20,151 nucleotides of DNA from Thermoanaerobaculia bacterium (lineage in GTDB: Bacteria; Acidobacteriota; Thermoanaerobaculia; UBA5066), in the NCBI GenBank assembly GCA_038245905.1, contig JBBRRY010000048.1:1-20151 (forward strand), in the 5' to 3' direction. How positions within the stretch are numbered: position 1 is the stretch's first letter; each line of letters starts with the position of its first letter. The position numbers and the translations under genes were made by a program. Positions 1-20,151 of the stretch are shown here, one piece after another. The notes beneath the pieces were generated by a model that was not told the DNA's origin, did no database searches, and saw only the letters and a program-made list of their open reading frames with translations.

Positions 1-2
1 GC

Positions 3-1580: not shown

Positions 1581-1601
1581 GCGCGTGAGATCGTCGCCGG
1601 C

Positions 1602-5267: not shown

Positions 5268-6085
5268 GGCGGCCCGCCGCGGCTCTCACCGTGAACGCGC
5301 TCCTCATCCTCGGGGCGGCGCTGACGCTGGCCCCGCTCGTATGGATGGTCTCGGCGTCGGTCATGCCCACGGGCGAGGCCAGCTCATTCCCGCCAGGCTT
5401 CATCCCGAGCCGCATCACGTTCGAGCATTACCGCGATCTTTTCCAGCGTCTCTCGCTCGGGCGGGCGTTCGGAAGCAGCCTCCTCCTCGCGTCGTCGGTC
5501 ACGTTCTGCTCGGTGATCCTGAACTCGATGGCGGGCTATGCGTTCGCGAAGCTCCGGTTTCCCGGCCGCGACCGGTTGTTCCGGCTGCTTCTCCTCGGTA
5601 TGGTCATTCCCGTCCAGATCGCGATGCTCCCGCTCTTCCTCCTGATGCGGTCCCTCGGTCTCGTGAACACGTATCTCGGAGTCGTCCTTCCGTCGGCGGC
5701 GGGCATCTTCGGGATCTTCCTCGTCCGGCAGTTCGCGCGCTCCATCCCCGACGAGCTCCTCGACGCGGCGCGCGTGGACGGCGCGAGTGAGTGGATCATC
5801 TACCGGCGCCTCGTCCTGCCGCTCCTCAAGCCGGTGCTCGTGACGCTCGGGGTCTTCATGTTCCTCGGGACGTGGAACGATTTCCTCTGGCCGCTCGTCG
5901 TCCTGACCGACGACACGAAGTACACGCTTCCGGTCGCCCTCGCGAACCTCGTGGGCGAGCACGCCCAGGACACGGAGCTCATGATGGCGGGCTCGGTGCT
6001 GACGGTTCTGCCCGTTCTTCTCCTCTTTCTCGGGCTGCAGCGGGCGTACATCGAGGGCATCACGGCGGGCGGGCTGAAGGAATGA
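5264..6085 (+). CDS. Carbohydrate ABC transporter permease (MalG/UgpE-like)
   Basis: GTG 5264 overlaps the previous stop (GTGA) and has GGGAGG upstream. Motifs AGYAFAKLRFPGR, SIPDELLDAARVDGASEW, WNDFLWPL; ends GITAGGLKE. Confidence 0.95.
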   Translation: MRRPAAALTVNALLILGAALTLAPLVWMVSASVMPTGEASSFPPGFIPSRITFEHYRDLFQRLSLGRAFGSSLLLASSVTFCSVILNSMAGYAFAKLRFPGRDRLFRLLLLGMVIPVQIAMLPLFLLMRSLGLVNTYLGVVLPSAAGIFGIFLVRQFARSIPDELLDAARVDGASEWIIYRRLVLPLLKPVLVTLGVFMFLGTWNDFLWPLVVLTDDTKYTLPVALANLVGEHAQDTELMMAGSVLTVLPVLLLFLGLQRAYIEGITAGGLKE

Positions 6086-9000
6086 CCGGCGCCGCGATCC
6101 TCCTCCTCGCGCTTCTCCTTCCGGGCGGTAACGCGCCCTGGTCGCCGGTCGCGTCGGCCGGAGTCTCGGTCGTCCTCGCCCCGATGGGGACGCCCGCCGC
6201 TCGGAGCGTGCGCATGGCGTACGACTTCCACGGCGGATCGGGCTGGGCCGGGATGCGCCGCGACGTCGCGCTCGACTTCCCGGACGAATGGACGCTCTCT
6301 TTCCGCGTGCGCGGCGCTGGGACGGCGAACACGCTCGAAGTGAAATTCCTCGATGCGAGCGGCGAGAACGTCTGGTGGGCGAGGCGGGAGAACTTCGTGC
6401 CTACGGCCGACGGGGAGAGAATCACAGTCCGGAAGCGCCACGTGAGCTTCGCGTGGGGGCCCGCGGGAGCGCAGCCCCTCCAGCGCGCCGCAGCCGTCGA
6501 GATCGTGCTCTCTGCGGGGACGGGCGGGAAGGGATTCTTAGAGGTTGAAGAGCCCTTGCTCGCCGAGAGGGCGAAGCTCGCGGCCTTGCCGGAGCCGGGC
6601 GTCACGCGGACTTCCGCAGGAATCCTGGTCGACCTCGGCGGCCTGCGCGAGTTCTCCGGTCTTGTCGTGGACTGGCCGGCTAAGGTGCCGCCGCGCTTCA
6701 CCGTCGAGATCTCGTCCGACGCACGTGCGTGGGCGGCGGTTCGCCGCGTCGAACACGGCGGCGCGCGGCGGGCGTTTTTCCATCTGCCCGAGACGGAGGC
6801 GCGGCTCGTCAGACTCTCGCTGCCGCCGGGCGAGTGGGGAACGCCGCGCGTCGCGGTGAAGCCCGTGGAATGGGCTCCTACGGTGAACGAATTCGTCGCG
6901 AGGGTCGCGAAGGAATCACCGCGCGGCCGCTTCCCGCGCGCCTTCATGGGCGAGCAGACGTACTGGACGGTGGCCGGAGTCGACGTCGATACGGAGGAGG
7001 TCCTCGTCTCGGAAGACGGCGCGCTGGAGCCAGGAAAGGGGTCTTTCTCGCTCGAGCCGTTTCTCTTCACCGGTGGCCGGCTCGTGACGTGGAACGACGC
7101 CGCGATCTCGCACGGACTCGAACGAGGCAATCTCCCGATTCCGACGATCACGTGGAAGGCAGGCGACCTGGATCTGGACGTGACCGCGCTCGTGGACGGG
7201 TCGGTCGGGTCTTCCGTCCTCTCCGCGCGTTATCGCGTCGCCAACCGCGGCGGGAGGGCGGTCCGCGTCCGGCTCTTCGTCGCCGTCCGGCCGTTCCTCG
7301 TGAACCCGCCGACGCAATTCCTGAACGCGCCTCACGGCGTCTCTCGAATCGACGCGCTCTCGTTTCGAGGGTCGACGTTGACGATAAACGGCACGCGCAC
7401 GGTCTCGGCGACCCCCGCTCCCGTTGCGACGGGCGCGGCCCCCTTCGACGCCGGGCCGATCTCGGATTTTCTCTTGGAAGGGGATTTGCCGGCGGCGCAC
7501 GAGATCCGCGACGAGACCGGCCTCGCGTCGGGGGCGTTCGCATGGGATCTCGAGATTCCTCCCGAAGGCTCGCGCGACGCGTTCCTCACGGTCCCCCTGC
7601 ACGGCGGCGCTCTCGCGCCCCCGGCGTCCGCCTTCGAGGGAAGACTCGCGTCCGTCACAGCTTCATGGGCGAAAGAAGTCGACCGCGTGCGCTTTCGAAT
7701 ACCCTCTTTCGCAGAATCTCTCGTGGCGACCTTGAAGTCGAACCTGGCCTACGTGCTCATCAACCGCGACGGGCCGTGGATCCAGCCCGGCTCGCGTGCC
7801 TACGAGCGCTCGTGGATTCGCGACGGAGCGCTTACGTCGTCGGCGCTCCTCAGGCTCGGCCACTCGGAAGAGGTCCGCGACTTCCTCGTCGCGTTCGCCG
7901 GGAAGCAGTTCGCGGACGGTCGGATTCCGTGCTGCGTCGATGCTCGTGGCGCTGATCCCGTGCCGGAGAACGACAGCCACGGAGAGTTCCTTTTCCTCGC
8001 AGCCGAATACTTCCGCTTCACGGGGGATGCCGAGACGCTCGGGGCCCTCTGGCCGCGGATCGCGAGGACCGTTGCCGCGATCGACGCACTGAGACACGAG
8101 CGCCGCACGGCCCAATACGAGGCGCCCGGAAGGCGCGCGTACTACGGGCTGCTCCCCGAGTCGATCAGTCACGAGGGGTACTCCGACAAGCCGGTCCACT
8201 CGTATTGGGACGACGCCTTCGCACGCAAGGGCCTCGCGGACGCGGCCGAGCTCGCGCTCTCTCTCGGGCATCCGGACGAGGTCCGCGCCTTCGCGGCGAT
8301 TCGCGACGAGTTCGAGGCGGACCTCCTCGCGTCGATCGCGCGCACGATTGAAGAGAATCATCTCGACACCATTCCCGCCTCGGTCGAGAAGCACGACTTC
8401 GATCCGACCTCGACCACGGCGTTCCTCTCGCCCTGCGGGCTGCAGGAAAAGCTCCCACAGGCGGCGGTGGCGCGCACGTTCGATCGCTACGTGAGAGAGG
8501 CGCGGGAACGGCGCGACCGCCCGGCCGCCCGCGGACCGGAGGCCGGCGCCTATACGCCCTACGAGCTCCGCACCGTCGGCGCGCTCGTGAGGCTCGGGCG
8601 AAAGGCCGAGGCGCATGAGATGCTCGCGTTCTTCATGAAGGACCGGAGGCCCGCCGCCTGGAATCAGTGGGCCGAGGTCGTCGGCCGCGATCCGCGCGCG
8701 CCGCGCTTCGTCGGGGACATGCCGCACACGTGGGTCGGCACGGACTTCATCCGCTCGTTCCTGGACTTCTTCGCGATCGAGCGCGACGGCGACGGAGCGC
8801 GTCCCGCGTCGCTTCTCCTTGGGGCCGGCCTCCCGGAGGAGTGGGTGCGCGCCCCGGGAGGCGTCGGCGTCGAGGGCCTCCGCACGATCTACGGGCCGCT
8901 CGACCTCTCCGTCGCGGCCTCGGGCCCCGAGGTGCGCGCGCGGATCGCCGGGGTGCGGGTCCCTCCCGGCGGCTTCGCTCTCTCCTGGCCTCTCGCCGGA

Positions 9001-9099
9001 ATCCCGCGCGCGGCCACGGTGAACGGCAAGCCCGCGGAGATCCGGGGCGGGGAGATCCTCGTGCTCGAAGTTCCCGCGGAGGTCGTCGCGCGCCCATGA
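6082..9099 (+). CDS. Secreted multidomain protein: galactose-binding-like/CBM and discoidin (F5/8C)-like domains plus C-terminal six-hairpin glycosidase-like domain (1005 aa)
   Basis: ATG 6082 forms an ATGA overlap with the permease stop, followed by signal-like MTGAAILLLALLLPGGNA. The discoidin-like segment is LVDLGGLREFSGLVVDW...FTVEISSDARAW. The helical catalytic-like region has IQPGSRAYERSWIRDGA, ENDSHGEF, HSYWDD and WNQWAE. Confidence 0.75.
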   Translation: MTGAAILLLALLLPGGNAPWSPVASAGVSVVLAPMGTPAARSVRMAYDFHGGSGWAGMRRDVALDFPDEWTLSFRVRGAGTANTLEVKFLDASGENVWWARRENFVPTADGERITVRKRHVSFAWGPAGAQPLQRAAAVEIVLSAGTGGKGFLEVEEPLLAERAKLAALPEPGVTRTSAGILVDLGGLREFSGLVVDWPAKVPPRFTVEISSDARAWAAVRRVEHGGARRAFFHLPETEARLVRLSLPPGEWGTPRVAVKPVEWAPTVNEFVARVAKESPRGRFPRAFMGEQTYWTVAGVDVDTEEVLVSEDGALEPGKGSFSLEPFLFTGGRLVTWNDAAISHGLERGNLPIPTITWKAGDLDLDVTALVDGSVGSSVLSARYRVANRGGRAVRVRLFVAVRPFLVNPPTQFLNAPHGVSRIDALSFRGSTLTINGTRTVSATPAPVATGAAPFDAGPISDFLLEGDLPAAHEIRDETGLASGAFAWDLEIPPEGSRDAFLTVPLHGGALAPPASAFEGRLASVTASWAKEVDRVRFRIPSFAESLVATLKSNLAYVLINRDGPWIQPGSRAYERSWIRDGALTSSALLRLGHSEEVRDFLVAFAGKQFADGRIPCCVDARGADPVPENDSHGEFLFLAAEYFRFTGDAETLGALWPRIARTVAAIDALRHERRTAQYEAPGRRAYYGLLPESISHEGYSDKPVHSYWDDAFARKGLADAAELALSLGHPDEVRAFAAIRDEFEADLLASIARTIEENHLDTIPASVEKHDFDPTSTTAFLSPCGLQEKLPQAAVARTFDRYVREARERRDRPAARGPEAGAYTPYELRTVGALVRLGRKAEAHEMLAFFMKDRRPAAWNQWAEVVGRDPRAPRFVGDMPHTWVGTDFIRSFLDFFAIERDGDGARPASLLLGAGLPEEWVRAPGGVGVEGLRTIYGPLDLSVAASGPEVRARIAGVRVPPGGFALSWPLAGIPRAATVNGKPAEIRGGEILVLEVPAEVVARP

Positions 9100-11480
9100 A
9101 GAAGATCGCACCTCTCGCGGCCGGCGCGTACGGCCACTTCTCCGAAGACGGCCGGGAATACGTGATCACGGACCCGAGGACGCCGCGCCCGTGGGTCAAC
9201 GTCGTCGCCAACCCCCGCGCGGGATTCGTCGTGAGCCAGACGGGGAGCGGTTTCTCGTTCCTCGGGAACTCGCAGCTCGCAGTGGTGACGCGCTGGCAGC
9301 AGGACCTCGTGGAGGACCTCTCGGGAAAGTTCCTCTACGTGAAGGACCTGGAGAGCGGGGAGATCTGGTCTCTCTCCCCGGCGCCCGTCTGGGCGGCCGT
9401 CGACTCCTTCGCCTGCCGTCACGGGATGGGCTACACGGTGTTCGAGACGTCGCGCTCCGGAATCGAGGCCGAGTGGACGATGTTCTGTCCCGCCGAGGAG
9501 ACGGCCGAGGTCTGGCGGATCACGCTCCGCAACACGTCTCAGAGGCCCCGTATCCTCCGGCTCTTCGGAACCCTCGAATGGTGCTGCGGGGTCACGCCTT
9601 CGCCCCGCCGCGAGTTCGGGAAGCTCTTCATCGAGACGCGCTTCGACGAGGGGCGCAGCACGATCGTCGCGCGCAACCACATGTGGGAGGTCGCGTCCGA
9701 GAGGTTCGGCCACTGGAATACGACCTTCCCCTGGATCAGCGCCTTCTCGACGTCCGAGGCCCTCGTCTCGGCGCAGGGCGACAAACGGGCATTCGTCGGG
9801 CGTTACGGCAGCCTCCGCTCTCCGGCGGCGCTCGTCGGGACGGGGGGCGCCGCGGCATTCGGGAGGCACGAGGACCCGATCGCGGCGCTCGAGATCGAGG
9901 TCGCGCTCGCCGCGGGCGCGTCGCGGACGGTCGGCTTCTCCCTCGCGACGGCGGAGTCGGAAGACGCGGCGCTCGCGCTGGGCTCCCGCTTCCTTCGGGA
10001 CGACGAGAGTCGCCGTGCGCTCGCCGAGGTCACGGCGGGGTGGCGGAGCCGCCTGGCGTCCCACCGGATGGAGACGCCCGATCGGACGTTCGACGCCGTC
10101 GTGAACGACTGGGTACGCTATCAGGCGATCGCGGCGCGGCTCTGGGGGCGCTGCGGCTACTACCAGCAGAGCGGCGCCTTCGGCTTCCGCGACCAGCTCC
10201 AGGATTCCCAGGTCTACCTGACGATCGACCCCGCGCTGTGCCGCGAGCAGATCCGACTCCACGCCGGACACCAGTTCAAGGACGGCTCGGTCTTCCACTG
10301 GTGGCACCCCCTGACCGAGCAGGGGCTCGTCACGAAAATGACGGACGACCTCCTCTGGCTCGCGTTCGTGTCGGCGAACTACATGAAGGAGACGGGAGAC
10401 TTCTCGATCCTCCTCGACGCGGCACCCTTCCTCGACGAGGAGGGGGCGTTTCCCTTGACGGAGCACGTCGCGCGCGCGTTCTCCCGCGTCTTCTCGCGGA
10501 TGAGCCCGCGGGGGATCCCGCTCATCGGCGCCGGGGACTGGAACGACGGGCTCTCGGCGATGGGCCTCCTCGAGAAGGGCGAGTCCGTGTGGCTCGGGCA
10601 TTTCCTCGCGGGTCTCCTCGCCGACTGGAGCGAGATCCACCGCCGCGCGGGACGGACCGCGCTCGCGGACGACTTCGCCGCGCGGCGCGGAGCCCTCGTC
10701 GCTGCGCTGAACGCGCACGGCTGGGACGGCGGCTGGTACCGGCGCGGAACGCTCGACGACGGGTCGGTGCTCGGGGGCGCGGAGAACCGCGTCGGGAGGA
10801 TCTTCCTGAACGCGCAGACGTGGGCGATCCTGAACGACGTCGCGCCGCCCGACCGCGCGGCGGCGTGCCTCGCGGCCGTGAAGGAGCACCTCGTCACCGA
10901 AGCCGGCGCGCTCCTCCTCGCGCCCGCGTTCGACCGACCCGTCGCCGAGATCGGTTACATCACCCGGTACGCACCGGGCCTCCGGGAGAACGGCGGCGTC
11001 TACACGCACGCCGCGACGTGGGCGATCGCCGCGGCGGCGAAGGCGAAGGACGCGGCGCTCGTCGAGAGGCTCCTCCTCGCGATCGATCCCGCGAACAAGG
11101 ACTCCGAGCGCTACGAGGCTGAGCCCTATGTCCTCCCGGGCAACGTCGACGGGCCCGCCTCGCCGCACTTCGGGCGCGCGGGGTGGACGTGGTACACGGG
11201 CTCGGCGGCGTGGCTGCACCGCGTCGTCTCGGAATGGGTCTTCGGCGTGCGGCCGGACTGGGACGGCCTGACGATCGACCCGTGCCTTCCACCGTCCTGG
11301 AGGCGGGCGAAGATGGTCCGGCCGTGGCGAGGGGCGACGCTCGAGATCGAAATCGCCCGTGGCGCGCCGCCGCACGGGGGGACCTCGATCGAGGTCGACG
11401 GCGTCCCGCTCTCGGGAAACGTCCTCCCTCCGCCGGAAGGGCCGGGCGGAATGCGCCACGTCGCGGTGACCGTTCGATAG
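9096..11480 (+). CDS. GH94 glycoside phosphorylase (794 aa, cytoplasmic)
   Basis: ATG 9096 forms an ATGA overlap. Motifs YGHFSEDGREYVI, TPRPWVNV, CRHGMGYT, GFRDQLQD, DDLLWL, catalytic GDWNDG, GESVW, ENGGVYTHAATW and GWTWYTGSAAW are all GH94 hallmarks. No signal peptide. Confidence 0.93.
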   Translation: MKKIAPLAAGAYGHFSEDGREYVITDPRTPRPWVNVVANPRAGFVVSQTGSGFSFLGNSQLAVVTRWQQDLVEDLSGKFLYVKDLESGEIWSLSPAPVWAAVDSFACRHGMGYTVFETSRSGIEAEWTMFCPAEETAEVWRITLRNTSQRPRILRLFGTLEWCCGVTPSPRREFGKLFIETRFDEGRSTIVARNHMWEVASERFGHWNTTFPWISAFSTSEALVSAQGDKRAFVGRYGSLRSPAALVGTGGAAAFGRHEDPIAALEIEVALAAGASRTVGFSLATAESEDAALALGSRFLRDDESRRALAEVTAGWRSRLASHRMETPDRTFDAVVNDWVRYQAIAARLWGRCGYYQQSGAFGFRDQLQDSQVYLTIDPALCREQIRLHAGHQFKDGSVFHWWHPLTEQGLVTKMTDDLLWLAFVSANYMKETGDFSILLDAAPFLDEEGAFPLTEHVARAFSRVFSRMSPRGIPLIGAGDWNDGLSAMGLLEKGESVWLGHFLAGLLADWSEIHRRAGRTALADDFAARRGALVAALNAHGWDGGWYRRGTLDDGSVLGGAENRVGRIFLNAQTWAILNDVAPPDRAAACLAAVKEHLVTEAGALLLAPAFDRPVAEIGYITRYAPGLRENGGVYTHAATWAIAAAAKAKDAALVERLLLAIDPANKDSERYEAEPYVLPGNVDGPASPHFGRAGWTWYTGSAAWLHRVVSEWVFGVRPDWDGLTIDPCLPPSWRRAKMVRPWRGATLEIEIARGAPPHGGTSIEVDGVPLSGNVLPPPEGPGGMRHVAVTVR

Positions 11481-11500
11481 CCCGGGAAGAGCGCGGATCT

Positions 11501-12871
11501 TCAGACGTCGAGGGCGCCCCCCCGGCTCCGGATCACCTCGGCGAAGAAGCGCGCGCTCGCTTTCGGGGTGCGCCGTTGCGTCGCGAAGTCCACGTGGATG
11601 ATCCCGAAGCGCTTCGAGAAGCCGTGGGACCACTCGAAGTTGTCGAGGAGCGACCACGCGAAATATCCACGGACGTCGACACCCCGCGCGATCGCTTCGC
11701 GGGTCGCGCGGAGATGATCCCTGAGATAGGCCACGCGCAATGGATCCGCGATGCCGTCCGGCCCGGCTTCGGGAGGGTCGGGAAAGGCCGCTCCGTTCTC
11801 GGTGACGTAAAGAGGAATGTCTCCATAGCGCGACTTAATCCATGTCAGGGCGTCGAGGAGGCCCGGCGCGTAGACCTCCCAGTCCATCTCGGTGTGAAGG
11901 GCGCCGCTCTGCCGGACGCGAGAGGCGCGGGTGGGGAATGCCGCCGGGTCGTCCTTCACGACGCCGCGCGTGTAGTAGTTGACACCGAGGAAGTCGATGG
12001 GGCTAGGGATGAGCTCGAAGTCACCGTCGGGGAACGGCGACCAGGCCTCTCCGAACATTCCGGGCAGCTCGTCGGGGGTGCGGCCGAAGAAAACCGGGTC
12101 GAGAAACTGGCGGTTCATGTAGGCGTCGGCGCGGGTGGTGGCTCCGGCGTCGGCGGCGGACTCGGACGCCGCGAACTTCGGCTCGAGGTTGACGACGAGA
12201 CCGACGCGGCGCCCACCCTCGGCACGGCAGGCATTGACGGCCGCCGCATGCGCGCGGAGGAGATTGCGCGCTGCGATCGCCGCCTCGAAGAGGCTGCGGT
12301 GTCCCGGCGCGAGGATGCCGTGCAGGTAGCCGCCGTCCGTCACGACCCACGGCTCGTTCAGAGTCGCCCATGTGCCGACGCCGGGAAGCGCGCGAAAGAG
12401 GACGCTCGCGTAGTCCGCGAACCATCCGGCGATGTCGCGGTTCAGCCAGCCGCCCCGGTCCTCGAGAGCCGCCGGAAGGTCCCAGTGAAACAGAGTCGCG
12501 AACGGTTCGATTCCCGCGTGAAGGAGCGCGTCCACGAGGCGCCGGTAGAAATCCAGGCCCTTCTCGTTCACGCGTCCCAGGCCCTCCGGCAAGACGCGGC
12601 TCCAGGAAATGCTGAACCGGTAGGCATTGAGCGACAGGCTCCGCATGAGCCCGACGTCTTCTTCGTACCGGTTGTAGTGATCGCACGCGACGTCGCCGAC
12701 GTCGCCGCCCGTCACGAGGCCGGGTGTGTGCGCGAAGCGATGCCAGTTGCTCGGGCCGGCGCCGTCCGCGAGCGGGGAGCCCTCGATCTGATAGGCCGAG
12801 GTCGCGGCGCCCCAGAGAAAGTCCCTGGGGAATCCGGGGCTCGGCGACGAGCCATCGTGCGGGCGAGGCAA
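11501..12871 (-). CDS. bglA: GH1 beta-glucosidase
   Basis: FLWGAATSAYQIEG, ACDHYNRY, YRFSISWSR, TLFHWDLP, acid/base TLNEP, nucleophile YVTENG, and WSLLDNFEW. TTG start at 12871. Confidence 0.95.
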   Translation of the reverse strand: MPRPHDGSSPSPGFPRDFLWGAATSAYQIEGSPLADGAGPSNWHRFAHTPGLVTGGDVGDVACDHYNRYEEDVGLMRSLSLNAYRFSISWSRVLPEGLGRVNEKGLDFYRRLVDALLHAGIEPFATLFHWDLPAALEDRGGWLNRDIAGWFADYASVLFRALPGVGTWATLNEPWVVTDGGYLHGILAPGHRSLFEAAIAARNLLRAHAAAVNACRAEGGRRVGLVVNLEPKFAASESAADAGATTRADAYMNRQFLDPVFFGRTPDELPGMFGEAWSPFPDGDFELIPSPIDFLGVNYYTRGVVKDDPAAFPTRASRVRQSGALHTEMDWEVYAPGLLDALTWIKSRYGDIPLYVTENGAAFPDPPEAGPDGIADPLRVAYLRDHLRATREAIARGVDVRGYFAWSLLDNFEWSHGFSKRFGIIHVDFATQRRTPKASARFFAEVIRSRGGALDV

Positions 12872-12880
12872 GCGCTCAGT

Positions 12881-13870
12881 CTAGAGCAGTTCCTGCATCC
12901 GGCTCAGGATGTCCACGATCCGCTGCCAGTCGTTCTGGTCGCCTTGAAAGGATCTTTCGCGGCGCAGGACGTTGCTCGTGCGGCGCGCGTCCTCGAGCAA
13001 ACGCGAGACGGTCTGCTTCAGATCGCGCGCATCGAAGGAGTTCGTGTCGAGCGTCTGCCTCAGGCGATGCGTCTCGCTGCTGAAGCGGTCGAGGGGTTCC
13101 GGGGAGCGTGCGTCGCGATCGCCGCGGGGCATGGAGTCGCGGGTGCGCATGACGCGCTCGTCGAGCTCCCTGGCGAGCTGCCGCAGCTCCGGGATGTTCG
13201 GGGCATTGAAGCTCCCGCGCTCGTAAGTGCGCTCGAGCGAGGGGGGCGGCGGAACGGGCTGAACCGGCTGCCCTTCCAGACGGTCGGGAATGCCATTGCC
13301 GTTCCGATCGCTATCGCGGTGATCCCATTCGCCGTGGCCCTCGCGTCCGTAACGGACGTAAGGCGGCGGAAGCTGGACGTCGGCGCCGCGCAGGACCTGT
13401 TGCATGCGGCCCAGGATGTCGATCGCCGTGTTCCACAGATCGTATGTGCGCGGGAAGAGCTGCACGTTGACGACCTTCCGGTTCACGTCGCGCGCGCGTT
13501 TGGTCAGGTCCTCGACTTCGCGCCGAATGTCCCACGGCGAATCGAGATAGCCGTCCATGCGCTGATGAAAGTCGGATGTGCGGCGCGCGAAGTCCGAAAC
13601 CGATGCGAGGAGCCGCACCTGCGAACGGTCGCCGCGGGCGCCTCGGTACGCCTCTCGGTTGAGATCCTGGGCGATTTCGTCGAGCGTGTGGGCGAGCGAC
13701 GCCATCGTCTGGTACTGCCGGCCCCGGAGAGGATGGCGCGAATCGATCCGGTGGTAATCGTCTTCTCCGAAGTGGAACTGGAGAGAAACCTGTGCCGGAG
13801 CGGAAAGCGAGGGGATCAGCGCCGCGCATCCCACCCAGGCAAGGGCGCGCATGTTTGCCGGGAATCTCAT
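12881..13870 (-). CDS. Hypothetical secreted protein (329 aa) with two ~100-aa helical repeats
   Basis: ATG 13870 is preceded by GGAGG (13881-13877). The N-terminus is signal-like (MRFPANMRALAWVGCAALIPSLSAPA-Q) and an internal duplication is visible in the translation. The track start at 14014 overlaps the upstream gene and runs through the promoter, so it is unlikely. Confidence 0.8.
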   Translation of the reverse strand: MRFPANMRALAWVGCAALIPSLSAPAQVSLQFHFGEDDYHRIDSRHPLRGRQYQTMASLAHTLDEIAQDLNREAYRGARGDRSQVRLLASVSDFARRTSDFHQRMDGYLDSPWDIRREVEDLTKRARDVNRKVVNVQLFPRTYDLWNTAIDILGRMQQVLRGADVQLPPPYVRYGREGHGEWDHRDSDRNGNGIPDRLEGQPVQPVPPPPSLERTYERGSFNAPNIPELRQLARELDERVMRTRDSMPRGDRDARSPEPLDRFSSETHRLRQTLDTNSFDARDLKQTVSRLLEDARRTSNVLRRERSFQGDQNDWQRIVDILSRMQELL

Positions 13871-13892
13871 GAAGGACCTCCGAAAACGCAGT

Positions 13893-13909
13893 AGCAACTC
13901 GCGTGCCAG
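13893..13909 (-). promoter_or_regulatory. Sigma-54 (RpoN) -24/-12 promoter
   Basis: The minus strand reads CTGGCACGCGAGTTGCT, matching TGGCACG-N4-TTGCW with exact GG-N10-GC spacing. It is intergenic, correctly oriented and 23 nt upstream of ATG 13870. Confidence 0.8.
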
Positions 13910-13982
13910 ACGATGAGCCGATCCGTGAGCCATCCGGAAGCGGCGGAGAAGGGCAGAGCTGGAGGAACAAGCAACCGCGCTC

Positions 13983-14585
13983 CTAATCCCGCCAGACGCA
14001 ATAGACATGCTCAACGCCGTACTGGCTCTTGCTCTCGATTCCCCGAAAGAGATGCCAGTTCAATCCGGCAAAGTGCGCTTCAATATCATGAGAAGCGAGA
14101 GCGAGGTCGGGCACATCGAGCCCCTTGTCCCGATTGTGTTGCAACTCTCGCGTCGTATCAGAGAACGGCGTGAACAGCACGATGCACAGTTTCCTTCGGA
14201 ATGACCCGACCGCGCCTGTCAGGATCTTTGACCAGTTGTAGTTATGCTCGAGTACATGTCGAAGCAGAATGCCGTCGACCTCGCTTCGGTACGTGGTCAG
14301 ATCGGCCACTTTCTCGGCGAACGGCGTCTGGCTGCCATCGATGCCGATATACGTGCCGCCGCAGAATCGCCGGAATCCTCCCGCTCCACATCCCCAGTCT
14401 TCGATTTCGCGGCACCCGACGAGAAATGCGGCCGCCATGTAGTACGTCGTCGCGCCTCCGTACATCATGCCGCCCGCCGGTAGCCTCCGACCCTCGTAGA
14501 ACCGATTCCATTTCCCGGTATTCACTTCGGCGTCGTAGTCGGCCGGCTCAATCGCTCTTCCGGGTGTCGTCGGTGTCCCTATCAC
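13983..14585 (-). CDS. Class I SAM-dependent methyltransferase
   Basis: Motif I IEDWGCGAGG, motif II YIGIDGS, then VDGILLRHVLEH. The GTG start overlaps the upstream stop (GTGA at 14585-14582). Confidence 0.8.
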   Translation of the reverse strand: MIGTPTTPGRAIEPADYDAEVNTGKWNRFYEGRRLPAGGMMYGGATTYYMAAAFLVGCREIEDWGCGAGGFRRFCGGTYIGIDGSQTPFAEKVADLTTYRSEVDGILLRHVLEHNYNWSKILTGAVGSFRRKLCIVLFTPFSDTTRELQHNRDKGLDVPDLALASHDIEAHFAGLNWHLFRGIESKSQYGVEHVYCVWRD

Positions 14586-15274
14586 GGCAGCCTCGGTTGG
14601 CTGGTGTTTGCGCGACGTCTGTTCAGCGCCCGGCGAACTGCAGTCACGAGGTAGTCACGGTCCACCTCGACGTCGTTGGTCATGTTCGTGGCGTGACGCC
14701 GCCAGGTCAGGACGACGTTCTGGTGTTGTCGCACTCCGCAGAGTGCCTCCGTGACCCTTGCGAGGAAATCGGTATCCTGGGCGTGACGCAGTTCGGGATC
14801 GAAGAGTCCAACGCGCTCGAACACCGAACGGCGGAACAGCATCGAGCCGAGTGCCGGATAGTGTTCCGGCGGCCACCGGGGCGATTCGGCGCCGCTCGGC
14901 TTCTCGTCGGACAGGAAGACGATCCGGGTTAGGCCCCAAAGCACGGCGATGTCCGGCGCGGCGGAGAGCATCGCGCTCTCGGCGGTGAGGCGATCGGGCG
15001 ACCAGAGGTCGTCTGCGTCGAGGAAGCCCAATATGTCACCGCGAGCTCCGGCCAGCCCACGGTTCAGAGCCGCCGGCAGTCCCTCGTTTTGCTCCGACCG
15101 GATCACACGGACCGCGTCTCCGCACGCAGCGGCTTCCTCAGCCGTGCCATCGGTTGACCCGTCATCCACGACGATCAGCTCGACCGGACAGGGCTGCTCC
15201 AGGACCGAACGGATGGCATCGCGAATGAACCTGCGACCGTTGTAAACGGGAATGATCACGCTGAGTCCGCTCAC
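14582..15274 (-). CDS. GT2 family glycosyltransferase (GT-A fold), 230 aa
   Basis: SVIIPVYNG, IVVDDGSTDGT, GLPAALNRG, FLDADDLW. Start is GTG 15274 in a GTGA overlap. Confidence 0.93.
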   Translation of the reverse strand: MSGLSVIIPVYNGRRFIRDAIRSVLEQPCPVELIVVDDGSTDGTAEEAAACGDAVRVIRSEQNEGLPAALNRGLAGARGDILGFLDADDLWSPDRLTAESAMLSAAPDIAVLWGLTRIVFLSDEKPSGAESPRWPPEHYPALGSMLFRRSVFERVGLFDPELRHAQDTDFLARVTEALCGVRQHQNVVLTWRRHATNMTNDVEVDRDYLVTAVRRALNRRRANTSQPRLP

Positions 15275-15942
15275 TTGGGCGTCCTCTGACGTTTCAGGTG
15301 GCCCCGGATCACGTCCAGATACTGCTCGCGTATGCCCTCGGCGGTGCGGGTCATGTTGGCCTCGTGAACGCGGCGGTGAAACACGATCCTCTCTAGTATC
15401 GCCGACTGCGCGCCGCCCTCCAGGGCCCGCGCGTACCATTCCATGAACTCGCCTACCGTTCCGCCCTCCCTAAACACTCCAATTCGGTCGAAGAGCGCGC
15501 GGCGCACGAGTGCGGCGCAGGCGGAATAGGCGGGGAACGGCTCCGCACGCACGCGCCAGCGGCGATCGCCGTCCGGACTCGAAAACTCGACGCCGTGTCC
15601 GAAGACCATATCGACCTCGCTGCGCGCGGCGAGAACGGCCGTCTGACGCTCGAGCTTGTCCGGCACCCAGAGATCGTCTGCATCCAGGAACGCGATCCAC
15701 TCCGCCCGGCTGGCCTGGATACCGCGATTGCGCGCGCCTCCAAGGCCGCGGCGTTCCTGATGAACGGCGTGCACGTCGCCGCCGTAAGAGTCGATGATCG
15801 ACGCCGTTGCGTCTGTCGAGCCATCGTTCACCACGACGAGCTCAACCGGGATCGACTGTGCGAGAACAGACTCTATGGCCTCGTGCACGAAACGCCCGGC
15901 GTTATGTGCCGGAATGACGACGCTGACAGCGGGAGCGGTCAT
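15271..15942 (-). CDS. GT2 family glycosyltransferase, 223 aa
   Basis: VSVVIPAHNA, VVNDGSTDAT, GGARNRG, IAFLDADDLW. Start is ATG 15942 in an ATGA overlap. Confidence 0.93.
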   Translation of the reverse strand: MTAPAVSVVIPAHNAGRFVHEAIESVLAQSIPVELVVVNDGSTDATASIIDSYGGDVHAVHQERRGLGGARNRGIQASRAEWIAFLDADDLWVPDKLERQTAVLAARSEVDMVFGHGVEFSSPDGDRRWRVRAEPFPAYSACAALVRRALFDRIGVFREGGTVGEFMEWYARALEGGAQSAILERIVFHRRVHEANMTRTAEGIREQYLDVIRGHLKRQRTPK

Positions 15943-16640
15943 GCGGGTGAATCCGTTTTGCGCAGGGCGCGCATGCGCCCCCGTTCGAACGCCCTCTTCA
16001 ACGCGGCGAAGGGCGCCCGGTCGACGGCCGTCTCGTCCCGCGTGACGTTTCCTGCATGAAAGCGCCTCTGGCAGACGACGTGGGCGTGACGGTCCACGAC
16101 GAGCCGCCGTTCCGTGATCCGAAGCATGAGGTCCAGGTCCTCTCCCACGCGAAGGGTGGGATCGAAGTCTCCGACCTCGTCGAAGACACTCCGCCGGAAA
16201 AGCATCGAGCCGACCGAGAGGGCCCATTGCGGGCGGCCATGCCAGTCCTCTCGCGGCGGTCTTCCACCGGTGCCGACGACATACGTCGACTGCCCCCAGG
16301 CAACGGCGGCGCCTGGCCTGGCGGCGAGGCTGTCCAGATGAGAGGAAAGGGCGGTCACCGGCCACAGGTCGTCCGCATCCAGAAACGCGATGAGCGGTTG
16401 AGCCGCCCTCCTGATGCCGGCGTTGCGCGCCGCGGCCGGACCGAGGTTGCCCTGGCGGATGGAAACGACGCGCTCAGAGAACCGCCTCACGATTTCGGGT
16501 GTCGCGTCGGTCGAACCGTCGTCGACGATGATGATCTCCCGCGGCGTGTGTTCCTGTGCCAGGACGCTCTCGATCGCCTCCGTCAGGTACCCGGCGCCGT
16601 TGTAGACCGGTACGATCGCGCTCACGCCATCGCCGTTCAC
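15939..16640 (-). CDS. GT2 family glycosyltransferase, 233 aa
   Basis: VSAIVPVYNG, IIVDDGSTDAT, GPAAARNAG, IAFLDADDLW, GEDLD. Start is GTG 16640 in a GTGA overlap with the kinase stop. Confidence 0.93.
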   Translation of the reverse strand: MNGDGVSAIVPVYNGAGYLTEAIESVLAQEHTPREIIIVDDGSTDATPEIVRRFSERVVSIRQGNLGPAAARNAGIRRAAQPLIAFLDADDLWPVTALSSHLDSLAARPGAAVAWGQSTYVVGTGGRPPREDWHGRPQWALSVGSMLFRRSVFDEVGDFDPTLRVGEDLDLMLRITERRLVVDRHAHVVCQRRFHAGNVTRDETAVDRAPFAALKRAFERGRMRALRKTDSPA

Positions 16641-17671
16641 GGACCGAGCCCCATGTGACGCGCCCGGACCAGAAGTTCGGCGTCGATCAGCTCGAGATTG
16701 CGCGCGTGATCGCGGGTCAGGTGAAGTCGATAGCACGGCACGGTCAGGATGCGTGAAAGGGCCTCGAGCTTTTTCCGCTCGTCGCCGGGCAGCTGCCTCA
16801 AGGAAGAGGGCAAGATGCGGCGGAGCGCCTCGCCCGGCGAAATGGCCTCGAGCTTCGGCTCTGCTCCGTCACCGCGAGACGGTTGAAAGACGGCGGCGAG
16901 CGGCGCGGAGTCGAGCATGGACGAGCTCGAGACACGAAGAAACGATTTCTCGGTTCGATCGTCGGGCTGCTGGAAGACCGACGCCCCCGCGGGCAGACCA
17001 TGCTCGAGGTCGCCGGCGGCGAGCTTTCCCGAGCCGTACACGGAATGGACGAGCGGCAGCGGCGTTGCCGCTTCCAGGAGAACGTAATCGTCGCCGAGAT
17101 AGGCGAATCCCGCGTCGAGGGAGCGCAACGCGAGGGTCGACTTACCCGCTCCGCCCGGCCCCACGATGAGAGCCGCGACCCCATGCTTGGCGATCGCGGC
17201 GCCATGGCAGAGCATCTGCTTGCGTGCGGTGAACCACGAGTCGAGCAGCCGCAGGAACGGAGCGGCCGCAATCCAGATCGGAAGGGCCGCGGCGTCGCGG
17301 AACCAAACGCCCGCCTGTCCTCTGTCTCGTCCGTAGAGGCTCACCACGCCGCCGATTGGATCGAAGAAGAACATGCCGGCGCCGTCCGAAGCGCGAACGG
17401 GCTCCCGCCGCGACCATCGCTTGGCGACCTTCCACTCGGGGCACGCCCACGACAGGGGCACCGGCTCCCCGTCCCAGGCGAAGATCGTGACGTCCGGTGG
17501 GCGCGTCTCGGGCACCACCCGGTGCCTCAGGGCCGCGGCGAGCAGCTGCGACAGCGTTTCCGTTCCGGCACACACTCGGAACACGCCGCCCGCGAGCGCG
17601 AAGTGAAAGACCGGAAAGTGTCGGGATCGGGCCGCAATGTCGTCGAGAATGTCGAAGAAGCGCTCGGACAT
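16637..17671 (-). CDS. HPr kinase-like P-loop kinase (HprK-related, similar in motif layout to lasso-peptide kinases)
   Basis: CHGAAI...LIVGPGGAGKSTL (His plus Walker A), followed by FAYLGDDYVLL (DD signature). Confidence 0.85.
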   Translation of the reverse strand: MSERFFDILDDIAARSRHFPVFHFALAGGVFRVCAGTETLSQLLAAALRHRVVPETRPPDVTIFAWDGEPVPLSWACPEWKVAKRWSRREPVRASDGAGMFFFDPIGGVVSLYGRDRGQAGVWFRDAAALPIWIAAAPFLRLLDSWFTARKQMLCHGAAIAKHGVAALIVGPGGAGKSTLALRSLDAGFAYLGDDYVLLEAATPLPLVHSVYGSGKLAAGDLEHGLPAGASVFQQPDDRTEKSFLRVSSSSMLDSAPLAAVFQPSRGDGAEPKLEAISPGEALRRILPSSLRQLPGDERKKLEALSRILTVPCYRLHLTRDHARNLELIDAELLVRARHMGLGP

Positions 17672-17703: not shown

Positions 17704-18132
17704 TCAGCCGCGTCCCGGAACGTGAGGCCAGCCCACGTCGCTGACGTCGTGGACCGGATCGAGCTTGATCAGTTCGGCCATGTCTTCAAATTTCTCCAGG
17801 CACGGCGTGCCATACGGCTGGCGAGATATCGACGGGGGCGGCGGAACCGCCCGGGCGGGTGAGTCCGGGTCGCCAGGTCCCAGGAGACCGACGGCCAGGA
17901 GATCGGCAACGAAGGACCGGATCTCGGCTTCCACGGATTCCGGCGCGGGTGAGCCCCCTGCCCGATACCAGGCAGCAATGGCATCGACGTCCATATGAGT
18001 GGTCAACATCTGCCAGATCTCACAGGCCGTGCCCCGCATGCTGTAGTAGGAGCCGTTGACGAAATCGATCGCGATGACTTCGCCGTCGACCGTTTGAAAC
18101 GCGATGCGCCGGTCGTCGATTTCGTAAGGCAT
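17704..18132 (-). CDS. PqqD-family/RiPP recognition element (RRE) protein with a C-terminal peptide extension (142 aa)
   Basis: ATG 18132 has GAGGTG upstream. The RRE pattern is three strands (AFQTVDGEVIAIDFVNGSYYSM) then helices (GTACEIWQML, VDAIAAWY, VEAEIRSFVADLLAVGLL). A Pro-rich linker and the tail YGTPCLEKFEDMAELIKLDPVHDVSDVGWPHVPGRG follow. Confidence 0.85.
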   Translation of the reverse strand: MPYEIDDRRIAFQTVDGEVIAIDFVNGSYYSMRGTACEIWQMLTTHMDVDAIAAWYRAGGSPAPESVEAEIRSFVADLLAVGLLGPGDPDSPARAVPPPPSISRQPYGTPCLEKFEDMAELIKLDPVHDVSDVGWPHVPGRG

Positions 18133-18141
18133 GACACCTCG

Positions 18142-18151
18142 ATCATAGAAT
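18142..18151. promoter_or_regulatory. Putative bidirectional promoter: overlapping -10-like hexamers
   Basis: In the 28-bp divergent spacer, TAGAAT (+, 18146-18151) and TATGAT (-, 18147-18142) overlap by 2 bp. Each lies 9 nt from its start codon. Confidence 0.5.
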
Positions 18152-18160
18152 CGCGCCCGG

Positions 18161-18856
18161 GTGTCAGCAACTGTTCGTGTGAGCGCGGTCGTCACGGCAT
18201 TTCAGTGCGAGGCGTTTCTCGCCGAGGCCGTACGGAGCGTCCTCGGGCAGAGCGTTCCCCCGGACGAGGTCCTCGTCGTGGACGACGGCTCCACAGATGG
18301 CACCGCCGCCGTCGCGCGGTCCTTCGGCGAGCGGGTCCGCGTCGTCGAACGCCGGAACGGCGGGCCGGGCGCCGCGCGAAACACGGGGTTAGCCGAGGCG
18401 CGCGGGGAGTGGATCGCTTTCCTCGACGGCGATGACGCGTGGCTCGGCGGAAAGACGGAGGCCCAGCTGGACGCGACCGCGGGCGGGGCGGATCTCGTCT
18501 TCGGATTTGCCCGGAACGTGAAGGCCCCGCGTGGGGTGGCGCTCGACACGGGCGTCCTGGATGCCGGCCCGCCAATCCCCGGCCTCGTGGCCGGCGCGAT
18601 GCTTGCCCGGCGCGAAGCCTTCGCGCGCGTTGGCCCATTCCCGGAAAATCTCTCCGTCGGCGAGTTCGTGGACTGGCATGCCCGGGCCTGCGAGGCCGGG
18701 ATCGCACGGGTCGTCCTTCCCGAAGTCGTCCTTCTCCGCCGGATCCACGGCGGCAACAGGACTCTCGTCTCGCGCGACGCGCCGGGTGACTACGTGCGCG
18801 TCCTGAAGGCAGCGCTCGACCGGCGGCGCGCCGCGGGGCCCGGAGAGCAGGCGTGA
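18161..18856 (+). CDS. GT2 family glycosyltransferase, 231 aa
   Basis: VSAVVTAFQ, VLVVDDGSTDGT, GPGAARNTG, IAFLDGDDAW, RRIHGGN. Confidence 0.92.
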   Translation: MSATVRVSAVVTAFQCEAFLAEAVRSVLGQSVPPDEVLVVDDGSTDGTAAVARSFGERVRVVERRNGGPGAARNTGLAEARGEWIAFLDGDDAWLGGKTEAQLDATAGGADLVFGFARNVKAPRGVALDTGVLDAGPPIPGLVAGAMLARREAFARVGPFPENLSVGEFVDWHARACEAGIARVVLPEVVLLRRIHGGNRTLVSRDAPGDYVRVLKAALDRRRAAGPGEQA

Positions 18857-20151
18857 CGGGGCGGGAGGCGATCCGCGGGTACGCCGCCTACTACATGGGC
18901 TCCCGGCGGCCGCTCCTCGTTTCTCTCGCCGCCGCGGTCGCGCAGCCGATCGCTCTCATCCCGATCCCGTGGCTCGCCCGGCGCGCCTTCGACCGGCTCA
19001 TCCCGGCAGGCGATGTCGGCGGCCTCGTGGCGACGGGCGCTCTGATCCTCCTCCTGACGCTGGCACAGGCCGTGCTGGCGCTCTGGGCGCGCGCACTCAC
19101 GCTCGACGTCACGAAGCGGGCGATCGCCCGCATGCGCGAGGACCTCGTCGCGAAGTTCTACGCCTTGCCGCGATCCTTCCTCGCGACGGCCGATCGGGCG
19201 GCGTTCCACACGCGAGCGGTGGAGGACACGGAGCGTGTGGACGTCATGACGAACGGGCTCGTGACGCAGTTCCTGCCGGCCGCGCTCGTCGGAGCCGCCC
19301 TCGGCCTCGTACTCCTGTGGCTGTCGCCGCTCCTCTTCGGCGTCACCGTCCTCTTCGCGCCCGCCGTATGGCTGACAAGCCGCGTGCTCGGGGTTCGCGT
19401 CCGGCGGGATATTGCCCGCTACCGCGGCGATTTCGAAGTTTTCAGCCGGGGCATCCTCTTCGTCCTCCAGAAGAGGGACCTCACGCAGGCGCAGGCGGCC
19501 GAGGATCAGGAGCGCGAGACTCAGGCGCGCCAGATCGATCGCCTGAGGACGACGAGCGGCCGCATGGCGTGGCTGAACACGGCGTACTCGCTGCTCCACG
19601 GCTTCCTGTTCGCATCGACAGGGATCGTGGTCCTCGTCGTGGGCGGGATCGAGGTCGTGAAGGGGCGAATGACCGGCGGCACGCTCGCGTCGTTCTTCGT
19701 CACACTTGGCCTCTTGCGCGCGCAGATGGCAGCCCTCTCGACGAGCCTTCCTCAGATCATCGGAGGGCGCGCCTCGCTTGAAGCCGTTCTCGAGCTCCTG
19801 CGGCTTCCTGCTCCCGCGTCCGCGGCGGCCCTTCCGCCTCTCGCGTTCCGTGGCGGGATCGCTCTCGAGAACGTCGTCTACGGGTACGACCCGGCGCGCG
19901 AACCCGTCCTCAGGGGCGTGTCTCTCACCCTCGCGCCCGGCGAGGCGGTCGCGCTCGTGGGCCGGAACGGAGCCGGAAAAACGACGCTCTTGAATCTCGT
20001 CCTCGGCTTCGCCGAGCCGTGGTCGGGCCGTCTTCTCGCGGACGGTCTCCCGTACGGAACCTTCGACGCCGTCTCGCTGCGAAGGAGGACGGGCACGGTG
20101 CTCCAGGAACCTCTCGTCGTCCGAGGGACCCTCGCCGAGAACGTGACCTAC
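18853..20151 (+). CDS. ABC exporter, fused permease/ATP-binding protein (MsbA-like type), 3'-truncated by the window edge
   Basis: Absent from the ORF track because it has no stop in the window. Manual translation from GTG 18853 (GTGA overlap) gives MTGREAIRGYAAYY..., hydrophobic helices, EDTERVD, then IALENVVYGY, Walker A GRNGAGKTT (19960-19986) and Q-loop VLQEP. Confidence 0.92.
   Translation, partial: MTGREAIRGYAAYYMGSRRPLLVSLAAAVAQPIALIPIPWLARRAFDRLIPAGDVGGLVATGALILLLTLAQAVLALWARALTLDVTKRAIARMREDLVAKFYALPRSFLATADRAAFHTRAVEDTERVDVMTNGLVTQFLPAALVGAALGLVLLWLSPLLFGVTVLFAPAVWLTSRVLGVRVRRDIARYRGDFEVFSRGILFVLQKRDLTQAQAAEDQERETQARQIDRLRTTSGRMAWLNTAYSLLHGFLFASTGIVVLVVGGIEVVKGRMTGGTLASFFVTLGLLRAQMAALSTSLPQIIGGRASLEAVLELLRLPAPASAAALPPLAFRGGIALENVVYGYDPAREPVLRGVSLTLAPGEAVALVGRNGAGKTTLLNLVLGFAEPWSGRLLADGLPYGTFDAVSLRRRTGTVLQEPLVVRGTLAENVTY

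Follow-up and report, generated by a model that had tools for sequence, protein, structure and literature searches.

The DNA analyzed here (the window) is a whole contig of 20,151 nucleotides (nt) from the genome assembly of a Thermoanaerobaculia bacterium (Acidobacteriota). Near its right end, a gap-free minus-strand operon is headed by a gene for a 142-amino-acid (aa) protein that consists of a PqqD-like RRE (RiPP recognition element; RiPPs are peptides synthesized by ribosomes and then modified posttranslationally), a Pro-rich linker, and a 36-aa tail. This protein is referred to below as the PqqD-tail protein, and its gene is followed by genes for an HprK-like kinase and several glycosyltransferases (Table 1). 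An original prediction, made from the sequence alone, had read the tail as a leader-like YxxPxL motif of the lasso-peptide type joined to a putative core peptide, the whole folding back on its own RRE. Its coordinates and sequence for the tail were found to be exact when the translation of the open reading frame (ORF) was re-read, and the Pro-rich spacer is present.

Residues are numbered on the 142-aa form (P0001, the form in the protein collection), whose ATG start lies at 18130-18132. The longest frame of the gene, 17704..18195 (-), has 163 aa and an alternative upstream GTG start at 18195. The sole Pfam domain is PqqD (PF05402; residues 39-105 of the 163-aa frame, E 1.8e-8), and the NCBIfam lasso, HPr-rel-A, and SynChlorMet PqqD models scored far under their cut-offs (for lasso_PqqD, 20 versus 80 bits). 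The tail, residues 107-142, is encoded at 17707-17814 and runs from YGTPCL to PGRG (YGTPCLEKFEDMAELIKLDPVHDVSDVGWPHVPGRG). Searched alone, it gave no PDB sequence match at E ≤10, no NCBIfam match at E ≤1, and no Pfam model.

Conservation and docking of the tail

The tail is the best-conserved part of the PqqD-tail protein in each of three sets of relatives, comprising 38, 150, and 232 sequences, and its conservation is far beyond chance. A word-indexed search found 38 PqqD-tail relatives among 206 candidates, and the invariant columns of their alignment (D117, D125, P126, H128, V130, G134, W135, and P136) all lie within the tail. Searched exhaustively, 1.84 billion representatives yielded 3,200 matches at E ≤1e-3 and 1,568 at E ≤1e-10. 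All 150 of the best-scoring listed alignments extended to query residue 157 or further, that is, to the GWP motif, a count biased towards tail-keeping members since the listed alignments are the top-scoring ones. A 150-row alignment (A2) was built from 184 proteins, leaving out about 34 rows that were fused or long, partial, or near-duplicate, and with the 82 proteins of the genomic loci described below it makes up the 232 distinct sequences. The linker columns of A2 (87-105) carry 0.6-1.2 bits of information and the tail columns 3-4.3 bits, so that the tail clearly outdoes the linker among homologs, which was one of the checks named with the original prediction.

Position by position, the 232 sequences have an aromatic residue at 107 in 219 cases (132 Phe, 71 Tyr, and 16 Trp), Pro at 110 in 211, and Leu (165), Phe (30), or Ile (19) at 112. 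Farther on, D117 is kept in 227 and M118 in 205, D125, H128, G134, and W135 are present in every sequence, and P126 and P136 are each present in 231. The tail is thus neither absent from the homologs nor unconserved in them. The linker preceding it varies in length between 12 and 30 residues (median 22, mostly 19-25), and the 2 to 25 residues that follow GWP (median 7) show no conserved position.

The RRE itself belongs with those of lasso-peptide systems. A profile of the family matched solved structures of TbiB1 (7e-18), PbaB1 (9x90, 1.2e-12), TfuB1 (1.3e-8), and LppB (9x8z_B, 1.7e-7), compared to E values of only 0.06-0.68 for structures of PqqD proper. This difference, together with the lack of a pqqABCE context, ruled out a PqqD of pyrroloquinoline quinone biosynthesis; no radical-SAM (S-adenosylmethionine) or PqqB/C genes were found in the window or the adjoining stretch of the same genome. 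An AlphaFold2 (AF2) model of the window protein (predicted local distance difference test score [pLDDT] 86.8) has the three strands and three helices of an RRE. The top six Foldseek hits of this model were all TbiB1 or TfuB1 chains from leader complexes, with template modeling (TM) scores of 0.86-0.89 on the target.

The motif at the start of the tail matches the lasso/LPP recognition motif [FYW]xxPxL (PMC13381572), which bears out its assignment to the lasso type of leader. According to the same paper, the crystal structures of PbaB1 and LppB show the RRE sheet to be extended by the residues that follow immediately on the Leu/Val of [Y/W]xxPx[L/V]. In the model of the window protein, L112-F115 form a strand after the linker and residues 118-123 a helix, with mean pLDDT values of 91 for residues 101-110 and 83 for residues 111-120. 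A 35%-identical paralog encoded in the same genome was modeled with a pLDDT of 81.7 (92 for residues 101-110), and its strand, E109-F111, directly follows FAPPRL. The predicted strand of both paralogs comes right after xPxL, as in the crystals of PbaB1 and LppB, and is therefore in RRE-leader register. The part running from DPxH to GWP has mean pLDDT values of 58-67 in the window protein and is probably flexible when the protein is alone.

Covariation within the family points to the same groove. In LppB, the hydroxyl of the leader Tyr bonds D70, four residues before the cleft-dividing F74; the corresponding residue of PbaB1, Q79, lies four ahead of F83 and bonds the leader Trp (PMC13381572; the PbaB1 numbering was cross-checked on the profile alignment). 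In the present family the conserved Phe is F74, and position 70 is therefore equivalent to D70 of LppB. Asp or Glu occupies position 70 in 56 of the 72 sequences with Tyr107, compared to 34 of the 148 with Phe or Trp107 (Fisher 8e-15). By mutual information with the Tyr/Phe state at 107, column 70 ranks first of the 141 other columns, in a run that included the window protein twice, with its two start codons. When only representatives of 50% clusters were taken, the split was 23/34 versus 17/84 and column 70 was again at the top; when only the loci from species genomes were taken, it was 15/20 versus 16/57 (p = 4e-4). Both copies in the present genome fit the rule, with Y107/E70 in the window protein and F/G in the paralog.

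Several points have to be set against this. The invariant motif has a pLDDT of 51-67 over both models, and the AF2 strand may be a recall of the solved lasso complexes. In the loci-only subset, column 70 falls outside the top 8 by mutual information. The second-best column is 131 (Tyr107 going with Ser, Thr, or Gly, and Phe107 with Asp). Part of the covariation signal therefore comes from subfamily structure, and the sequences are less independent than the p-values imply. Taken with these points, docking of the leader-like motif in RRE pocket 1 is well supported by the models and by the alignment. Docking in cis is favored, from the constraint on linker length, and docking in trans is the alternative. 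Of the proposed fold-back of the tail on its own RRE, then, the register of the predicted strand and the pairing of Tyr107 with an acidic residue 70 speak for the contact; these data do not distinguish cis from trans.

Gene neighborhood across the family and in this genome

A scan of species-representative genomes gave at least 298 relatives, of which 80 loci were kept; with the two in this genome, 82 loci were compared, and all 82 encode a full-length protein with RRE and tail. Neighbors were counted by clustering ORFs of at least 70 aa and by searches with the proteins of this genome. An HprK-like kinase is encoded at 67 of the 82 loci, at 52 of them directly downstream on the same strand, and at 43 of the 46 loci that have at least 5 kb of flanking sequence on both sides. 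A family 2 glycosyltransferase (GT2) is found at 73 loci (45 of the 46 well-flanked ones), a nucleotidyltransferase of PF14907 (NTP_transf_5, PsmN/LppN-like) at 53 (39 of 46), and an ATP-binding cassette (ABC) ATPase or exporter at 31. An epimerase/dehydratase cluster occurs at 16 of the 82 loci and a family 4 glycosyltransferase (GT4) cluster at 11. The apparently conserved neighbor clusters 3, 5, 6, 8, 12, and 16, first listed as unknown, were rejected as antisense shadows and not families. This conserved cassette points to an unstudied protein- or peptide-decorating system.

The spread of the cassette is wide, and by the record titles the loci fall into at least 15 phylum-level groups. These include Actinomycetota, Chloroflexota, Pseudomonadota, Acidobacteriota, Verrucomicrobiota, Planctomycetota, Cyanobacteria, Bacteroidota, and Desulfobacterota-type lineages, and further Omnitrophota, Spirochaetia, Chlamydiae, Patescibacteria, Bacillota, Binatia, Sumerlaeia, and Vulcanimicrobiota. 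Within the phylum of the window, the tail was found in 14 of the 401 genomes searched (this one included), with 15 matches, all in frames of at least 144 aa. Only this genome among the 14 has two copies, and the tail was not found in three other genomes of the same genus. The distribution within the phylum is patchy and accessory.

Fusions join the RRE-tail unit, the kinase, and the GT2 into what, from the sequences, reads as one machine. P0043 (781 aa) and P0094 (849 aa) consist of an RRE with a complete tail, then two RREs, then the kinase; the tails of the extra RREs are reduced to the [FY]xx[PL]x-hydrophobic strand. Since the complete tail is internal in these two proteins, it need not be C-terminal. 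P0058 and P0073 have three RREs with a complete tail on the last one only, and P0055 and P0056 have two RREs each, with a complete tail only on the first RRE in P0055 and only on the last in P0056. These layouts cover the six proteins named, with P0105 and P0136, of similar length, left out. A kinase-GT2 fusion is encoded at L061:14721-16514, and seven other kinase matches are 501-606 aa long.

The kinase looks competent, as judged from its conserved P-loop and DD motif. Over 53 rows of family kinases, H156, G174, G176, K177, D195, and K242 are invariant and D194 nearly so, and D194/D195 match the DD site D158/D159 of PsmK, whose mutation killed that enzyme (PMC6993621). When the kinase and the PqqD-tail protein were co-folded, the score was 0.44, compared to 0.01 for the best of three controls, with at least 61% contact agreement between runs and a partner pLDDT of at least 72. 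In the benchmark, 58 of 80 solved complexes and 2 of 110 mismatched pairs came up to the mark applied; at scores of 0.60 or lower, only 7 of the 80 solved complexes passed, together with both passing mismatches. The co-folds were run on custom alignments, so these benchmark counts hold roughly. For the kinase part of the proposed co-folding check, the result therefore lends weak support to a predicted interaction between the kinase and the PqqD-tail protein.

RREs are usually viewed as receptors for separately encoded leaders, and genome mining accordingly seeks an adjacent precursor gene. The gaps around the PqqD-tail gene are 23-33 nt in both modules of this genome, and nowhere in these operons does a gap exceed about 33 nt. 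Clustering of 6,913 ORFs of 20-69 aa within 6 kb at the 82 loci yielded nothing but shadows of larger genes, hence no free small ORF that is conserved. A strict tail pattern occurred once per locus, within the PqqD gene, at 80 of the 82 loci (L022 and L069 miss it). This result for the 82 loci agrees with the lack of a visible small precursor ORF that was remarked on from the window alone. No tail-only protein was found by a search with the single window tail, and a profile of 80 tails recovered 132 proteins of 19-84 aa without an RRE from a collection of 5.8 billion clusters. Of the 24 that were read, about 11 start inside RRE helix 3 and are, by their sequences, fragments or miscalls. Several others lie on long contigs and have their start in the linker (P0226, P0229, P0232, P0237, P0238, P0272, and P0290); they may be natural split forms or frameshifts.

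The machinery of a lasso peptide was likewise looked for. No macrolactam cyclase was found in the window, in the adjoining stretch of contig C2, or among the conserved neighbors of the 82 loci, and these neighbors also include no B2 peptidase or other protease. The genome, which is 96.4% complete, has only two weak matches to PF00733 (Asn_synthase), on contigs C5 and C52. It has none to the B2 leader peptidase family PF13471 or to the archaeal-type signal peptidase TIGR02228 (LppS). The window tail contains no Thr-x/Gly1 cleavage context. A lasso peptide cluster was therefore ruled out: the B1-type RRE is present, and the cyclase, the B2 peptidase, and a separate precursor with Thr-x are missing. 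This agrees with the earlier judgment that the tail is probably not a lasso peptide.

In the genome at hand, the cluster extends past the window. Over its last 141 nt the window overlaps one end of contig C2 from the same assembly, in reverse complement and without a mismatch, and the frame of the exporter continues there. The stretch concerned is 2632-10606 of locus L003 (G000:C2:235000-245605). Past the exporter lies a second module, which encodes the paralog with the tail FAPPRLEKFTDMQDLLLLDPIHEVDETGWP and its own HprK-like kinase, whose gene overlaps that of the paralog by 4 nt. The same module encodes a GT2, a PMT_2 glycosyltransferase, a PF14907 nucleotidyltransferase (E 3.6e-39), a Peptidase_MA_2 protein, and a tetratricopeptide repeat (TPR) membrane protein. 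With this paralog and its kinase beyond the exporter, the cluster consists of two RRE-tail/kinase modules.

Table 1. Coordinates of the PqqD-tail gene, of the parts of its product, and of the neighboring genes in the window
Feature	Positions	Strand	Remarks
PqqD-tail gene (candidate self-leadered RRE protein)	17704..18132	-	142 aa; stop codon 17704-17706
RRE / PqqD winged-helix domain, residues 1-86	17875..18132	-	Pfam PF05402, profile and Foldseek matches, AF2
RRE secondary structure (residues): strands 10-15, 18-23, 28-33; helices 35-44, 49-58, 64-80			AF2 model
Pro-rich linker, residues 87-106	17815..17874	-	Sequence variable, length constrained
Leader-like recognition motif YGTPCLEKF, residues 107-115 ([FYW]xxPxL and putative strand)	17788..17814	-	Conservation, predicted strand, covariation
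Acidic helical segment EDMAELIKL, residues 116-124	17761..17787	-	Family consensus TDMQDLLLL; modeled helix 118-123
Invariant motif DPVHDVSDVGWP, residues 125-136	17725..17760	-	DPxH[DE]VxxxGWP; family counts
Variable C-terminal end HVPGRG, residues 137-142	17707..17724	-	Nothing conserved after GWP
HprK-like P-loop kinase	16637..17671	-	33 nt downstream of PqqD-tail gene; weak Hpr_kinase_C and HprK_rel_A/B matches
GT2 glycosyltransferase	15939..16736	-	PF00535, E 4.4e-33
GT2 glycosyltransferase	15271..15947	-	PF00535, E 1.5e-32; start inferred from domain start
GT2 glycosyltransferase	14582..15439	-	PF00535, E 5.5e-32; true start probably later than 15439
200-aa protein at operon end	13983..14585	-	No Pfam or NCBIfam match above noise
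Divergent GT2 glycosyltransferase	18161..18856	+	PF00535, E 1.2e-30; 28 nt from PqqD-tail gene
MsbA/bacteriocin-type ABC exporter	18853..20151	+	Cut by contig end

The longest ORF of the GT2 gene at 15271..15947 reaches 16365 (364 aa), and its domain begins at residue 148. The 200-aa protein at the operon end contains a glycine-rich GCGAGG motif like that of class I S-adenosylmethionine methyltransferases, by sequence resemblance. A 377-aa ORF at 12881-14014 (-) overlaps the operon end; it has an internal signal-peptide-like stretch, no family match, and no homolog at the other 81 loci. The first 12.9 kb of the window (1-12871) are an unrelated sugar-uptake and glycoside hydrolase (GH) region, with genes for the C-terminal part of a TonB-dependent outer-membrane barrel, a PF10091 "glucoamylase," a solute-binding protein, two permeases, a GH94 phosphorylase, and a GH1 glucosidase. 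The combination of PF10091, GH94, and glucosidase presumably resembles beta-1,2-glucan utilization loci. Between the second permease and GH94 lies a stretch of about 2.6 kb (~5800-9111) in which long ORFs on both strands, such as 5791-9099 (+) of 1,102 aa, gave no Pfam match.

What the tail may do

The reading we put forward is that the PqqD-tail protein is an RRE of the lasso/LPP type with its own recognition peptide fused to it, the tail serving as a built-in leader plus acceptor; we hold it tentatively, at a little less than an even chance. By the models and the alignment, the length-constrained linker would let [FYW]xxPxL lie in the RRE groove like a leader peptide. Docking, in cis or in trans, would present the invariant acidic segment (TDMxxLLLL-DPxH[DE]VxxxGWP) to the HprK-like kinase, which is translationally linked. 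By analogy with LppK, PsmK, and PsmN, the kinase would phosphorylate the tail, the PF14907 nucleotidyltransferase and the GT2s would build sugars on the phosphate, and the decorated protein, or a piece of it, would be passed to the ABC exporter. If the tail is both leader and acceptor, a separate precursor gene would be needless.

The precedents for such a modification come from two systems. Ser3 of the LPP core receives several phosphates from LppK (PMC13381572). PsmK acts on a C-terminal Ser, and addition of a hexose to the phosphate there requires PsmN (PMC6993621). The aromatic residue at 107 lies 18 positions before Asp125, the same spacing as from Tyr-16 of LppA to its phospho-Ser3 in YxxPxVLxHQxIxFETxxS (PMC13381572); this match is suggestive of the substrate role, as a coincidence in its favor drawn from analogy.

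Several observations count against the tail as a substrate. None of its Ser or Thr residues is conserved among the 232 sequences: position 131 is Ser or Thr in 65 and Asp in 127, position 116 is Ser or Thr in 145, one or the other of these positions is so in 183, and 22 tails have no Ser or Thr anywhere in 113-136. S131, the Ser offered earlier as a possible acceptor, was ruled out as a conserved acceptor by these counts, as was a universal single hydroxyl at 116 or 131. LppK accepted only Ser: exchanging Ser3, as in S3A, S3T, or S3Y, gave no phosphorylation (PMC13381572). No known RiPP core resembles the tail in being nearly invariant over at least 15 phylum-level groups, and a docking motif would account for this just as well. 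The tail of P0043 and P0094 is internal, before two RREs and the kinase, and therefore is not a releasable C-terminal core there. A protease is not a conserved neighbor at the 82 loci, and the weakness of the co-fold counts on the same side. Modification of the tail as a core peptide, in the sense of the original prediction, is not supported; the tail lacks a conserved Ser/Thr, is near-invariant across phyla, and is internal in the kinase-fused relatives. Because no Ser or Thr is conserved, the candidate acceptors under the built-in-leader reading are Asp125, His128, or a subfamily-specific Ser/Thr at 116 or 131.

The combinations at columns 116 and 131 (E116 and S131 in the window protein) were Ser/Thr with Asp/Glu in 100 of the 232 sequences, Asp/Glu with Ser/Thr in 34, Ser/Thr at both in 27, and Asp/Glu at both in 21. 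Such an alternation of Ser/Thr and Asp/Glu looks like that of a phospho-site, by sequence pattern, and is not universal.

The most serious competitor, which we consider possible and somewhat less probable than the built-in leader and acceptor, is that the leader-like strand only fills and stabilizes the groove of its own RRE and that DPxH[DE]VxxxGWP is a motif that docks onto the kinase or activates it, with the Trp as an anchor and the Asp and His perhaps completing a metal or active site. The kinase, nucleotidyltransferase, and GT2s would then have some other target, for instance a glycan, a sugar linked to a lipid, or an unlinked protein. A tail that is invariant across phyla and has no conserved Ser/Thr speaks for this reading, and the lack of a conserved protease nearby fits as well. 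So does the layout of the fused proteins (PqqD-tail, PqqD, PqqD, kinase), in which the tail is internal and each RRE has its own cap, with one GWP per protein. The epimerase/dehydratase cluster at 16 and the GT4 cluster at 11 of the 82 loci, as well as the PMT_2 glycosyltransferase in the second module of this genome, are in keeping with such targets, and LppB is insoluble without leader, so a built-in leader could be structural (PMC13381572). However, the characterized related enzymes of LPP, paeninodin, and pseudomycoidin, LppK and PsmK among them, act on leader-bearing peptides (PMC13381572; PMC6993621). In addition, no role is known for an RRE with a permanently blocked groove, an invariant segment of about 30 residues is long for a docking motif, and the spacing from the aromatic residue to Asp125 is that to the LPP phospho-site.

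A further possibility is that a separate, hypervariable precursor displaces the cis tail, which would be auto-inhibitory or a placeholder. Precursors are short and variable, so clustering of small ORFs can miss them, and the several linker-starting members of the 132 RRE-less tail proteins could be split forms. We consider this improbable in view of the narrow intergenic gaps in both modules, the lack of a conserved free small ORF within 6 kb, and the single occurrence of the tail motif, inside the PqqD gene, at nearly all loci. Moreover, all 15 tail matches in the 14 genomes of the phylum lie in long frames, and nearly half of the short proteins inspected are fragments or miscalls. Finally, the resemblance to a leader could be coincidental and the tail an ordinary C-terminal extension unrelated to the RRE groove. 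The motif is indeed short and degenerate, and ~5-9% of the members lack the aromatic residue or the Pro. Coincidence is nevertheless very hard to reconcile with the position-specific conservation, the strand predicted in register in two paralogs of only 35% identity, and covariation at exactly the RRE position that the structures lead one to expect, and we give it almost no weight.

Returning to the built-in leader and acceptor, a more far-reaching version would make a pan-bacterial protein primer of the self-leadered RRE: an HprK-like kinase would phosphorylate the invariant tail at Asp125 or His128, neither of them a hydroxyl residue, and the phosphate would seed an exported methylated oligosaccharide. 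The PsmN-like transferase and the GT2s would then assemble a glycan on a small carrier, as glycogenin does, and not on a lipid or a free peptide. We regard this version as unlikely, though a shade less so than displacement of the tail by a separate precursor.

Relation to known systems and implications

The nearest known system appears to be the LPP clusters of Bacillota, lppA-K-B-S-D-N (Popov et al., Nat Commun 2026, PMC13381572). As far as the text of that paper describes them, both sets have a discrete lasso-type RRE, an adjacent HprK-like kinase, an uncharacterized nucleotidyltransferase (PF14907 here), an MsbA-like exporter, and glycosyltransferase genes in the surroundings, and both lack a macrolactam cyclase. 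They also share a [Y/W]xxPx-hydrophobic motif for the RRE groove, which is predicted for the cassette described here. The differences lie mainly in the peptide. The leader-like motif is fused to the RRE here, whereas LPP has a separate, variable LppA, and only the [FYW]xxPx-hydrophobic part of the LppA motif is shared. The segment after the motif is invariant here and variable in LPP, and an Asp stands here at the spacing of the LPP phospho-Ser. Furthermore, this genome has no LppS and the loci no conserved protease nearby, GT2 genes belong to the conserved set here, and the present cassette occurs in many phyla, whereas LPP is called Bacillota-restricted by its authors (PMC13381572). The paeninodin and pseudomycoidin sets, as described in PMC6993621, have in common with this cassette an HprK-like kinase with a DD site, a PsmN-like nucleotidyltransferase, a B1-type RRE, and an ABC exporter. 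Unlike them, the present loci have no cyclase, B2 peptidase, C-terminal Ser acceptor, or separate precursor gene.

No mention of a natural RRE-leader fusion was found in literature searches or in the available text of PMC13381572 and of the 2025 RRE survey PMC12710340, supplementary tables excepted. With the same exception, the searches found no description of an RRE-tail/kinase/glycosyltransferase cassette outside Bacillota. TbiB1 (5v1u/5v1v) and TfuB1 (6jx3) have the fold and the class of recognition motif in common with the RRE of the PqqD-tail protein, but their leader is a separate chain, whereas here it is predicted to be part of the same polypeptide, via the ~22-residue linker. A recognition or substrate segment and a biosynthetic protein are on one chain in borosins such as OphMA and in engineered leader-enzyme fusions of lanthipeptide synthetases. 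Those fusions involve a catalytic enzyme, whereas the partner here is a noncatalytic recognition element, with no evident release of a product.

If the reading of the tail as a built-in leader and acceptor is true, a natural RRE-leader fusion would explain a large class of "orphan" PqqD/kinase/glycosyltransferase clusters, which comprises at least 1,568 clusters at 50% identity (E ≤1e-10) in at least 15 phylum-level groups. It would also provide a compact, testable model for the presentation of a segment by an RRE to a kinase of the HprK-like type. The phospho-glycosylation chemistry of LPP and paeninodin, so far described only in Bacillota, would extend to most of the bacterial tree, and if the acceptor is Asp or His, this would be new chemistry for the HprK-like kinase family.

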